Below the pieces are notes generated by a model. That model did not search any database, was not told the DNA's origin, and saw only the letters and a list, made by a program, of their open reading frames with translations. The position numbers were made by a program, and so were the translations under genes. This document shows positions 1 through 1,762 of a stretch of DNA of 1,762 bases, in pieces; position 1 is the stretch's first letter, and each line of letters starts with the position of its first letter. This stretch comes from Escherichia coli. GTDB taxonomy: Bacteria > Pseudomonadota > Gammaproteobacteria > Enterobacterales > Enterobacteriaceae. The stretch lies in the NCBI RefSeq assembly GCF_003334385.1, contig NZ_QOWN01000110.1. One strand, given 5' to 3'.

Positions 1-546
1 GCCCTGGGGATAACGGCAAAACAGATTGCTGATGCCACAGGAAAGAAAAACATGGTGTCGCACTGGTTCAGTGCCAGCCAGTGGCAGCTACCGGACGAAA
101 GCGATTATCTGAAATTACAGGCGCTGTTTGCCCGGGTGGCAGAAGATAAGCATCAGCGCGGAGAACTGGAAAAGCCACATCACCAACTGGTCAGCACATA
201 CAGTGAACTGAACCGGCAGTATACGGAACTGCAGAGTGAATATAAGCATCTGCGGCGGTATTTTGGTGTGACGGTGCAGGTGCCGTACACCGATGTGTGG
301 ACGCATAAACCGGTGCAGTACTATCCCGGGAAACATCCGTGCGAAAAACCGGCAGAAATGCTGCAGCAGATAATCAGCGCGAGCAGTCGTCCGGGTGACC
401 TGGTTGCAGATTTCTTCATGGGGTCAGGTTCGACAGTCAAAGCAGCGATAGCGCTGGGACGTCGTGCAACTGGCGTTGAGCTGGAGACTGAGCGTTTTGA
501 GCAGACGGTCAGGGAAGTTCAGAATTTAGTCAGTCAGAACGGATGA
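1..546 (+). CDS. DNA methyltransferase, beta-class N6-adenine/N4-cytosine family (N6_N4_Mtase-like), C-terminal portion; 5' end probably lies upstream of the window
   Basis: Frame 1 is open from base 1 to the TGA at 544-546, so the ATG at 52 may be an internal Met. The translation carries HPCEKPAEMLQQIISASSRPGDLVADFFMGSGSTVKAAIALGRRATGVELETERFEQ, which fits the HPxxKP ... GD-V-D-F-GSG(S/T)T ... LGR ... G-E C-terminal motif block (AdoMet-binding motif I, FxGxG type) of beta-class amino-methyltransferases. No DPPY motif IV is present in the 182 codons visible, consistent with it lying upstream. GC about 53% by hand count. Confidence 0.8.
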   Translation, partial: ALGITAKQIADATGKKNMVSHWFSASQWQLPDESDYLKLQALFARVAEDKHQRGELEKPHHQLVSTYSELNRQYTELQSEYKHLRRYFGVTVQVPYTDVWTHKPVQYYPGKHPCEKPAEMLQQIISASSRPGDLVADFFMGSGSTVKAAIALGRRATGVELETERFEQTVREVQNLVSQNG

Positions 547-586: not shown

Positions 587-662
587 GGCCCTTTAGCTCA
601 GTGGTGAGAGCGAGCGACTCATAATCGCCAGGTCGCTGGTTCAAATCCAGCAAGGGCCACCA
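587..662 (+). tRNA. ileZ: tRNA-Ile2 (anticodon CAU, presumably lysidine-modified, decoding AUA); ileX/ileZ-like
   Basis: Cloverleaf folded by hand: acceptor GGCCCTT (587-593) / AAGGGCC (652-658); D-stem GCTC/GAGC; anticodon stem 613-617 / 625-629 with loop CTCATAA (anticodon CAT at 621-623); T-stem GCTGG/CCAGC with loop TTCAAAT; discriminator A; encoded CCA at 660-662. The sequence is very close to E. coli ileX as I recall it. The symbol ileZ is the name used for phage-borne copies; Ile2 versus Met identity rests on that similarity, not on the anticodon alone. Confidence 0.85.
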
Positions 663-671
663 TATCACATA

Positions 672-748
672 CCGCCATTAGCTCATCGGGATAGAGCGCC
701 AGCCTTCGAAGCTGGCTGCGCGGGGTTCGAGTCCTCGATGGCGGTCCA
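672..748 (+). tRNA. tRNA-Arg, anticodon read as UCG (decoding CGA, possibly CGG)
   Basis: Cloverleaf folded by hand: acceptor CCGCCAT (672-678) / ATGGCGG (738-744), all 7 bp Watson-Crick; D-stem GCTC/GAGC with a 9-nt D-loop; anticodon stem CCAGC (699-703) / GCTGG (711-715), loop CTTCGAA with U33 and A37, anticodon TCG at 706-708; 5-nt variable loop; T-stem CGGGG/CCTCG with loop TTCGAGT; discriminator T; encoded CCA at 746-748. Unusual C1-G72 first pair. Confidence 0.8.
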
Positions 749-804
749 TTATCTGCATTATGCGTTGTTGGTTCTGATGAGTGAATCATTGTCTTTTGAG
801 CAAC

Positions 805-826
805 AGGCTATCATATAAGATAGCCT
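805..826 (+). other. Perfect 8-bp hairpin AGGCTATC-ATATAA-GATAGCCT downstream of the tRNA pair; possible weak terminator or RNA processing element
   Basis: Inverted repeat 805-812 / 819-826 with a 6-nt loop. The following sequence is only moderately T-rich (CAGACTTCCTTGTTTATTCTC), so a terminator role is uncertain. Confidence 0.2.
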
Positions 827-904
827 CAGACTTCCTTGTTTATTCTCGCCGGATGCTTCGTAGATATTTGCAGGCATCTGTATGCAGGGGTATTATTGCG
901 GCAT

Positions 905-1026
905 ATATCATCCGGAAAAATAAAAACTACATGCTGATCCGGAGATGATAGTTACAAGTCCTCCCGGATCCCGCATATTTACTATATTTTATAGATAATT
1001 GTTCTTGTTAATATGGAGATGGATAA
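905..1026 (+). promoter_or_regulatory. AT-rich upstream region of the lipoprotein gene with TCCGGA-type repeats, candidate promoter/operator, and Shine-Dalgarno
   Basis: TCCGGA at 911-916 and 939-944. An imperfect inverted repeat GATCCGGAG (937-945) / CTCCCGGATC (961-970) surrounds a 15-nt spacer. Several -10-like hexamers follow (TATATT 984-989, GATAAT 994-999), but no convincing -35/-10 pair at canonical spacing was found. GGAG at 1015-1018 is 8 nt upstream of the ATG at 1027. Confidence 0.3.
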
Positions 1027-1455
1027 ATGTATTGCCGTGCTGTACCAGTTCTTGTTTTGATATTAGCCAGTCTGACAACTGGCTGCACAAAAGATGTATC
1101 GACAAATAATTATGATGCTTCTCTGTATCACTCAGATAAATTAATAAAGTCGCAAAATTTGAGCTCATCGGAACGTACCCCTGATGCCAGTGAAGAAATC
1201 AGGCAGTATGCCATTCAGGTCAGGAAAGCCATAGAAGAACAGTTAAAGGATGCGAGTAAGTATTCAGGAAAAGAGTGTTCACTGAGAATGTATATGGCCC
1301 CGAATGGTCTTCTGCTACAGGTTAAAAGAGAAAGCGGTGATCCCGATTTATGTCGTGAAGCGATGAATGCAGTAAAGAATGCTGATATACCATCACCACC
1401 GTCTTCAGGAGTATATAAAGCATTTAGAAATGGCGTGCTGGATTTTAAACTCTGA
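1027..1455 (+). CDS. Predicted lipoprotein with a TolA C-terminal domain (TolA domain III)-like fold; moron-type accessory gene
   Basis: 142-aa ORF with an SD-like GGAG 8 nt upstream. The N-terminus MYCRAVPVLVLILASLTTGC has a basic n-region, a hydrophobic core and a lipobox-like TTGC, giving Cys20 as the predicted lipidated residue; Thr at +2 implies no inner-membrane retention signal. Residues ~55-142 (EEIRQYAIQVRKAIEEQLKDASKYSGKECSLRMYMAPNGLLLQVKRESGDPDLCREAMNAVKNADIPSPPSSGVYKAFRNGVLDFKL) align by eye with the E. coli TolA C-terminus as I remember it (YAGQIKSAIE..DASSYAGKTCTLR..APDGMLL.IKPEGGDPALC..A..AAK.AKIPKPPS..VY.VFKN..LDFK), roughly half identical, including both cysteines at the same 25-residue spacing. 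GC about 41% by hand count. Confidence 0.85.
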   Translation: MYCRAVPVLVLILASLTTGCTKDVSTNNYDASLYHSDKLIKSQNLSSSERTPDASEEIRQYAIQVRKAIEEQLKDASKYSGKECSLRMYMAPNGLLLQVKRESGDPDLCREAMNAVKNADIPSPPSSGVYKAFRNGVLDFKL

Positions 1456-1490
1456 CAGGGGGAGAAGATTTTCTCCTGTCCTGATGATTT
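1454..1490 (+). terminator. Candidate intrinsic terminator immediately after the lipoprotein gene
   Basis: Hairpin overlapping the stop codon: GACA (1454-1457) and GGAGAA (1461-1466) pair with TTCTCC (1471-1476) and TGTC (1477-1480), with a GGG bulge and a GATT loop. It is followed by CCTGATGATTTTGGGG; the T-run is short and 6 nt from the stem, so this is weak. Confidence 0.35.
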
Positions 1491-1548
1491 TGGGGCGCTG
1501 GAAAGATATTGTGCTGTGAAGTGTTAAATTCCTCACAATTCAGTAAGT

Positions 1549-1564
1549 TGACAGTTGCCTGTCA
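1549..1564. repeat. Perfect palindrome TGACAG-TTGC-CTGTCA (6-4-6), overlapping a consensus -35-like TTGACA (1548-1553)
   Basis: Direct reading: 1549-1554 TGACAG is the reverse complement of 1559-1564 CTGTCA. The same TGACAG / CTGTC arms form the outer stem of the hairpin at 1453-1480. No matching -10 hexamer was found at 16-18 bp spacing from the TTGACA. Confidence 0.5.
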
Positions 1565-1602
1565 GACTGAGCATTTGTTAAAAAAATTTCGCATGGTGAA
1601 TC

Positions 1603-1618
1603 CCCCTGTGCGGAGGGG
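1603..1618 (+). repeat. GC-rich hairpin motif copy 1 (CCCCTGTGCGGAGGGG)
   Basis: 14 of 16 positions identical to copy 2 at 1743-1758. Forms an imperfect stem CCCCT/AGGGG. Confidence 0.45.
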
Positions 1619-1740
1619 CGACTGGTGAACGGTATGATCTCTTTGATGATCGTAAGCGAGAATATGCGGGTTTAGTGTCACCGGGCTGAACTCACCGGGA
1701 GGCACCCGGCACCATGCAATGGCACATAGCGCCACTCTCC

Positions 1741-1762
1741 AGCCCCTCTCCGGAGGGGCTTT
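1741..1762 (+). terminator. GC-rich hairpin motif copy 2 (AGCCCCTC-TCCG-GAGGGGCT), followed by TTT at the window edge; candidate intrinsic terminator
   Basis: Perfect 8-bp GC-rich stem with a 4-nt loop, followed by T residues that run off the window. A full T-tract cannot be confirmed. Confidence 0.4.

Follow-up and report, generated by a model that had tools for sequence, protein, structure and literature searches.

What is a low-G+C segment with a lipoprotein gene doing beside the tRNA genes of a lambdoid prophage, and what could its product offer to the host? The question is raised by a 1,762-nucleotide stretch of Escherichia coli DNA (RefSeq assembly GCF_003334385.1, contig NZ_QOWN01000110.1; hereafter the window), for which an original prediction had proposed that positions 749-1455, from the end of the tRNA genes to the end of the lipoprotein gene, are foreign cargo, namely a horizontally acquired moron equipped with its own promoter and terminator. 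The whole window is matched identically in the human commensal E. coli strain G1/2 (NZ_CP060083.1, 2954295-2956056, reverse strand), where it lies in a lambdoid prophage adjoining ompW; positions labelled L001 below refer to the G1/2 sequence that holds this prophage. We conclude with high confidence that positions 770..1523 (+ strand) are separately acquired, moron-type cargo in a hypervariable slot of the prophage late region and, judged from its flanks, the slot is the one in which Shiga toxin (Stx) phages carry stx2AB. The product of the cargo gene is very probably a lipoprotein-tethered domain III of TolA, and the explanation that in our view fits best as a whole, an acquired cassette encoding such a tethered domain with a decoy role, appears moderately probable.

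The argument for separate acquisition is carried by the comparison with related prophages. In the G1/2 prophage, the backbone comprises, in order, the Q antiterminator, a 198-bp open reading frame (ORF), a DNA methyltransferase, tRNA-Ile, tRNA-Arg, the slot, STnc100, a nanS-p-type esterase, DUF1378, DUF826, the holin and the lysis genes. The cassette was delimited by the points at which homology to the related prophages is lost and then regained: on the left it stops at 769 (at 803 in L006, as aligned by blastn), and on the right it resumes at 1516-1533 (L006-L010). The low G+C content predicted for 749-1455 was correct, whereas the extent was not, as the foreign block defined by comparison runs from ~770 (or ~805) to ~1518-1523. 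Of 5426 complete E. coli genomes, 1755 have the left flank with the methyltransferase and tRNA genes (1-748, scored as present at a coverage of at least 80%) and ~123 have the cassette, which corresponds to ~7% of the genomes having the flank. Otherwise collinear prophages without the insert hold other cargo in its place, i.e., stx2AB (O157:H7), TerB with DUF3927, iraM, or DUF3927 with iraM, or have a near-empty slot (L006 and L008, from O158:H23 and Ec-U5), in which only tens of bases separate the tRNA gene argO from the STnc100 block; ~750 bp of the window stand in for the ~77 bp (the rest of argO and a short spacer) of these near-empty sites. Uniform, syntenic and vertical inheritance of the gene, one of the two observations named in the original prediction as speaking against it, is therefore not what related prophages reveal, and the other, the lack of a difference in G+C content, is contradicted by the values given below. 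Between carriers, the cassette is 98.4-100% identical (99-100% in its 257-bp non-coding upstream part), compared with 93-96% for the methyltransferase flank and 92% for the STnc100 block; by this measure, the cassette is younger than its surroundings. The carriers also differ in the type of Q (273 aa, 221 aa, or QuuD beside an ompC-like gene) and in the content downstream of the cassette. From these comparisons, the cassette arrived through recombination, at the probable expense of the 3' portion of argO, the third tRNA gene, and has later moved between phage backbones together with short flanks. A flanking direct repeat as a signature of transposition or integration was sought and rejected: only a 9/10 repeat is present (771-780 and 1478-1487), and about a dozen chance pairs are estimated per 900 bp.

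The left junction bears on the order of events. Alignment to the intact argO (tRNA-Arg UCU) of the Stx2, iraM and TerB prophages points to a remnant of this gene at 762..808 (+), of which the first 8 nt are intact and the anticodon-arm region matches at 14 of 16 positions, and from which the T arm and the 3' end are gone. A collinear local match of this quality was equalled by 65 of 5000 shuffles (p ~0.01), and we regard the remnant as probable, not certain; ARAGORN calls no tRNA at 762..808. Given a truncated argO at the junction, the tRNA-bearing state would be ancestral and the cassette would have come later. The end point of the tRNA similarity coincides with an inverted repeat forming a near-perfect hairpin with an 8-bp stem and a 6-nt loop (805..826, +), whose stability (-13 kcal/mol, z = -3.4) was reached by none of 200 shuffles; an Rfam scan by E-value yielded no RNA family within 749-1523. 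The cargo gene contains five AGA/AGG codons, the very codons that argO would read, though the arrival of the cassette would have destroyed argO.

Base composition sets the same segment apart. The hand-counted values of the original prediction were reproduced by computation: the methyltransferase region (1-540), put at ~53%, has a G+C content of 53.1%, the lipoprotein gene (1027-1455), put at ~41%, has 40.8%, and the spacer described as AT-rich (749-1026) has 38.1%, with 39.7% for 749-1455 as a whole. Fisher tests against 1-540 gave p = 1.3e-4 for the coding sequence and p = 4.8e-5 for the spacer. For the cassette as delimited above (770-1523) the G+C content is 40.7%, versus 53.1% on its left and 54.7% on its right. 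When the 39-kb prophage was scanned in 754-bp sliding windows (mean G+C 0.514, standard deviation 0.052), only 0.6% of them were as low as the cassette, and the lowest one (0.402) lies within it, at L001 20777, i.e., window position 777. The predicted use of rare codons was likewise borne out, with 13 such codons among 142; ATA encodes four of the six Ile residues, and AGA or AGG five of the eight Arg residues. At third codon positions, the G+C content (GC3) is 0.331 in the cargo gene, compared with 0.602 in the methyltransferase gene and a median of 0.518 across the prophage. The codon index of the cargo gene (0.564) is below the prophage median (0.624) and below each of 38 host genes (0.622-0.801); these 38 chromosomal genes of the same strain served as the reference, and the index therefore reflects typical usage and not that of highly expressed genes.

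The cargo gene itself (1027..1455, +; WP_000271631.1) is an ORF for a predicted 142-aa lipoprotein with the fold of the TolA C-terminal domain (domain III). The original prediction spoke of a lipoprotein gene and had missed the TolA C-terminal domain. The translated signal peptide and lipobox (MYCRAVPVLVLILASLTTG preceding the Cys) occupy 1027..1086 (+), with Cys20 predicted to be lipidated; the lipobox context reads LILASLTTG up to the cysteine, and Gly19-Cys20-Thr21 is invariant across alleles. The next 33 residues (1087..1185, +), 76% of which are polar, charged, Gly or Pro, lie outside the TolA domain match and presumably form a flexible tether. The rest (1186..1452, +) is homologous to TolA domain III: a gapless alignment pairs residues 54-141 with residues 333-420 of the TolA of the same genome, with 45 of 88 positions (51%) identical and with both cysteines and the exact C-terminus kept. 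Pfam family PF06519 matches at 8.2e-23 (model positions 7-96 of 96) and the TolA domain III chains in PDB entries 1S62, 3QDP, 2X9A and 1TOL match gaplessly at ~1e-25 (best 1.6e-25); in view of such matches to solved structures, we take the fold as fixed. According to the +2 rule of lipoprotein sorting, a residue other than Asp at this position leads to the outer membrane. The cargo lipoprotein has Thr, not Asp, at +2 and Lys at +3; hence, from the lipobox and Thr at +2, it is predicted to be lipidated and anchored to the inner side of the outer membrane, from which the domain would reach into the periplasm.

In ~900 complete E. coli genomes, the gene bears the RefSeq/PGAP label 'tolA: cell envelope integrity protein TolA', presumably because the product passes the cut-off of TIGR02794 (75.9 against 59.45), of which only the last ~90 profile positions match. 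The model for full-length TolA, NF007065, gives a score of 103 against a cut-off of 213 and is matched at profile positions 297-386 of 387. A bona fide TolA has three domains and ~390-420 aa, and we rejected this identity for a 142-aa product without domains I and II; the true tolA (421 aa) is located in the tolQRA-tolB-pal operon of the same genome. The RefSeq name is misleading, since the product is a domain-only lipoprotein. Recent capture of the host tolA was rejected as well, given a nucleotide identity of 56% and saturated synonymous sites (pS 0.72). The ratio of nonsynonymous to synonymous substitution rates (dN/dS) among alleles of the cargo gene is 0.26-0.36 and, as judged from these alleles, the gene is under purifying selection. 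In PHROG, the protein corresponds to family 5772, for which the function is listed as unknown.

The gene is not restricted to this slot. A second allele, 80% identical over the 3' 375 nt, is present in ~770 genomes and in phage mEp460, and it occupies a different position: in Qin/DLP12-like prophages and mEp460 an STnc100-like element lies upstream of it. It is followed there by a paralogue of 124-131 aa with 27% identity and the lipobox MLTFWVGFVAG before the Cys (L002 6533-6907; L003 6891-7265; L004 6580-6975). In strain GN05476 (L005 5258-5686; see also L034-L036) the cargo allele is a mosaic, in which codons 1-53 (the 5' 159 nt) match the window exactly and codons 54-142 show a dS of 0.2; this pattern is that of intragenic recombination. 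The 3' part of the GN05476 allele resembles the other allele group, its right junction differs in lying just past the stop codon, and upstream of it a truncated methyltransferase gene adjoins an ompC-like porin gene and quuD. With the domain as query, an exhaustive HMMER search returned 296 cluster representatives at E <= 1e-3; among the top 150, 71 are short (105-165 aa) proteins with the domain at the C-terminus, and at least 46 of these 71 have a lipobox. These matches place the cargo protein in a broad family of short lipoproteins with a TolA domain, a family that is unstudied. The family contexts examined, on contigs that are short metagenomic pieces, include one phage-like locus.

TolA- and TonB-type lipoproteins occur together in this prophage and elsewhere. 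The G1/2 prophage encodes a second lipoprotein of 108 aa (MKRNLPLIILLSSLVMG preceding the Cys) at L001 28014-28340, 3' of the lysis genes, whose residues 26-104 match the C-terminal domain of E. coli TonB (PDB 8RD6 and 1U07, ~4e-16); it is also found at L012 18061-18387 and L013 17790-18116, and PHROGs classes it as 'Rz-like spanin'. The C-terminal domains of both envelope energy transducers thus appear to be mimicked, in parallel, within one prophage. A recurring metagenomic cluster (L078 3946-7384; also L079 and L080) consists of a TonB_C lipoprotein, a PF01024 colicin pore-forming protein (214 aa), a small gene on the opposite strand, a Bor homologue and a TolA-domain lipoprotein; upstream of the TonB_C gene and across its 5' end, the DNA is similar to the entry-exclusion region of ColE1-type plasmids (exc1, Exc2 lipoprotein).

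What could such a protein do in the periplasm of a lysogen? We tentatively suggest that it may act as a decoy giving the lysogen tolerance to TolA-dependent colicins and filamentous phages. As the cargo protein is devoid of TolA domains I and II, it should have no coupling to TolQR; incoming TolA-binding ligands would bind this anchored, uncoupled copy of domain III instead of the energised TolA and would stall at the outer membrane. Among these ligands would be the g3p-N1 domain of filamentous phages of the Ff type and the domains by which TolA-dependent group A colicins are translocated. Overexpression of periplasmic TolA domain III reportedly renders cells tolerant to colicins and Ff phages. 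According to the review PMC7391070, strand beta3 of TolA domain III is the binding site of both g3p-N1 and TolB and strand beta2 that of colicin A, the contact being made by strand augmentation in each case, and the dissociation constant (Kd) of the TolA-TolB complex is 40-200 uM. Because this native contact is weak, a modest level of the decoy could spare the Tol-Pal system of the host. Circumstantially, the proposal agrees with the presence of the TonB C-terminal-domain lipoprotein in the same prophage and with the location of one distant family member, whose neighbours are a Bor homologue, a TonB_C lipoprotein and a colicin-type pore domain. A broader and somewhat more speculative extension is that the TolA- and TonB-domain lipoproteins might jointly serve, at the outer membrane, as decoys for colicins and phages that depend on Tol or Ton, the TolA type then being the first recognised member of a family providing protection by target mimicry.

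The expression signals lend no clear support to the promoter and terminator of the original prediction. By a consensus scan, the best sigma-70 promoter candidate upstream of the gene is the weak (9/12) TTTGCA-18-TATTAT at 867..896 (+), and with 2 promoter-like sites the window shows no excess over shuffled sequence, for which 3.0 are expected. A Shine-Dalgarno-like GGAG (1014..1017, +) precedes the ATG by 9 nt. No terminator was called by the consensus scan of the window; folding placed two adjacent small hairpins 3' of the stop codon (1460..1496, +), which do not form a canonical intrinsic terminator, the first of them (1460-1477) having no U-run and being no more stable than shuffles (z = -1.08). 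Acquisition of the gene was foreseen correctly, whereas a promoter and a terminator of its own remain putative. In the G1/2 prophage, the methyltransferase-to-holin stretch is all on one strand and terminator-like hairpins lie 34-100 bp 3' of Q; from its position within the one-strand stretch between Q and holin, the cargo gene would belong, as stx2 does, to the Q-dependent late operon. The first canonical terminator downstream of the cargo gene is a terminator-like hairpin at L001 21741-21760, which closes STnc100.

Several other explanations have to be set beside this one. The segment could be an old part of the backbone that other lineages lost, its low G+C content being the general AT-richness of lambdoid accessory and regulatory DNA. 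The prophage is indeed a compositional mosaic, in which dicB, racR, an HTH gene (HTH3) and the TonB-domain lipoprotein gene have a similar G+C content, GC3 and codon index, so that low composition alone is suggestive, not decisive, for separate acquisition; equal values are recorded for dicB, racR, HTH3 and hyp25377, and all carriers of the window allele share the same immediate flanks. An old backbone segment is hard to reconcile, however, with the probable truncation of argO at the left junction, which puts the tRNA-bearing state first, with a cassette whose identity between carriers (98-100%) exceeds that of its flanks (92-96%) and that is present in only ~7% of the genomes with the flank, and with the different Q types of the carrier backbones; we consider it very improbable. 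Equally improbable in our judgement is that the gene is a functionless fragment of a captured tolA hitch-hiking in a variable slot. The plain annotation as TolA, the nature of the product as a partial copy (domain III only) of a cellular gene and the absence of a function in PHROG would suit such a fragment. Against it, the frame is intact in ~123 genomes for the window allele and in ~770 for the other, the dN/dS values are those of a constrained gene, a lipoprotein signal and a tether were added and conserved, this architecture is found again in dozens of clusters that separate at 50% identity, and the gene has stayed intact in a prophage with frameshift annotations in its structural genes.

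The most serious alternative to the decoy, although in our opinion an unlikely one, is that the protein modulates the Tol-Pal system: the anchored domain would bind the TolB N-terminus (or CpoB) and block force transmission by TolQRA, which would loosen the outer membrane and increase vesiculation or leakage, the protein thus being a Q-dependent late product aiding envelope breakdown or release of phage or periplasm. The gene does lie between Q with its tR'-like terminators and the holin, on the same strand and in the exact place of stx2AB, no convincing promoter of its own was found, and the TolB-binding beta3 strand is conserved in the cargo protein (...LDFK). In PMC6195910, periplasmic TolA domain III is moreover described as causing leakage of periplasmic proteins. 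The phage, however, already has a holin, an endolysin and an Rz-type lysis protein; a Kd of 40-200 uM for TolA-TolB implies that a high copy number would be needed to compete; the family has members outside phages, one of them beside a colicin-type gene, which fits protection better; and the TonB-domain lipoprotein of the same prophage has no obvious role in lysis.

The decoy explanation also has to be held against observations of its own. Binding of the ligands by a domain that is 51% identical to TolA is assumed, and periplasmic TolA domain III damages outer-membrane integrity according to PMC6195910, so that a decoy may come at a cost. Promoter-like signals that could drive the cargo gene in a lysogen do not exceed the shuffled expectation and, from its position, the gene could be expressed late only, which would be better suited to lysis or release than to protection of the lysogen. 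Some members of the family lie in chromosomal-looking, non-phage neighbourhoods, no defence-system family of PADLOC matched at E <= 0.1, and literature searches for a prophage TolA-like lipoprotein or decoy returned no relevant paper. All these points weigh against the explanation that we favour.

The remainder of the window belongs to the conserved backbone. The 3' part of the prophage DNA (adenine) methyltransferase gene (1..546, +; ORF 52-546) corresponds to the full coding sequence at L001 19488-20546, annotated as DNA-methyltransferase; it matches phrog_6952 at 2e-99, and it is backbone, not cargo. Two phage tRNA genes follow: a tRNA with the anticodon CAT at 587..662 (+; ARAGORN; Rfam tRNA, 72.5 bits), named tRNA-Ile in RefSeq and of the ileZ type, reading AUA, and a tRNA-Arg with the anticodon TCG in the argN position at 672..748 (+; ARAGORN; Rfam, 55.1 bits). 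In the O157:H7 Stx2a prophage the second tRNA (L010 5672-5748) has the ARAGORN anticodon TCT, versus TCG in the window and most relatives, and this prophage thus has two tRNA-Arg(TCT) genes; at the corresponding position of Qin-like prophages ARAGORN makes no call. The right flank of the slot (1524..1762, +) is a conserved block with the prophage small RNA STnc100 (RF02076, 164.8 bits, E = 1e-38), the Rfam match spanning 1562-1762 and being cut by the window end; the block is kept in L005-L010. Some related prophages have three to five diverged tandem STnc100 blocks between the cargo and the esterase gene (L012 11722-12615; L023-L031), and STnc100 is linked to PasD in a 2026 preprint. Two small ORFs within the cassette (781-948 and 836-937) have no RefSeq annotation. 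Most structural genes of the G1/2 prophage (L001 29930-41762; terminase large subunit, capsid, portal, connectors and tape measure) are annotated with frameshifts, the cargo gene being intact; this could reflect either a decaying prophage or homopolymer errors in the assembly.

The compositional result is in itself routine, as low-GC morons in the stx slot are well known and the window adds one more type of cargo to a variable slot whose cassettes are swapped by recombination within the tRNA cluster on one side and the STnc100 block on the other. More noteworthy is the cargo, an uncharacterised and mis-annotated lipoprotein mimicking TolA, whose architecture is shared, according to the exhaustive search, by dozens of diverged clusters without an assigned function. 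If the decoy role is true, prophages would make their hosts tolerant to colicins and filamentous phages through mimicry of the very host protein that such agents exploit, a simple mode of lysogenic conversion that would be relevant to competition in the gut.

Among known systems, the cassette most resembles the lambdoid morons. Similarly to HK97 gene 15 and to bor and lom of lambda, it is an extra gene present in some of a set of collinear phages, with a G+C content unlike that of its neighbours and an envelope product likely to benefit the lysogen. The classical definition of a moron (Hendrix/Juhala, as quoted in PMC3594210) includes a promoter and a terminator of its own, whereas the cassette offers a 9/12 promoter match and hairpins without a U-run; moreover, morons add DNA, while this cassette seems to have replaced part of a tRNA gene. 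The stx2AB locus of Stx2-converting phages has the identical backbone position, from Q through holin, and a left flank 94% identical over 769 bp, but carries a toxin and an intact argO in place of a TolA-domain lipoprotein and a truncated one. Domain III of E. coli TolA (1S62, 1TOL, 3QDP/3QDR, 2X9A) shares with the cargo protein the cysteine pair, the C-terminal ...LDFK strand and the C-terminus; unlike the cargo protein, host TolA precedes this domain with the transmembrane domain I and the long helical domain II, for which a lipoprotein signal and a short tether are substituted here.

The proposed role has parallels both in phage biology and in protein engineering. Llp of T5 and Cor of phi80, N15 and HK022 are phage lipoproteins acting on FhuA, and they are, by description, similarly small proteins of the outer membrane proposed to protect the lysogen by hindering an uptake pathway; their target is a receptor, FhuA, and they are not known to be homologous to a host energy transducer, whereas in the present case the hub domain of TolA would be mimicked. 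Closer in principle is the engineered use of periplasmic TolA domain III to make E. coli leaky (PMC6195910, citing Levengood-Freyermuth 1993; Wan & Baneyx 1998), in which, as there described, the domain is also delivered without domains I and II. The engineered domain is soluble, overproduced and causes leakiness, whereas the natural protein is diverged in sequence and predicted to be anchored by lipid.

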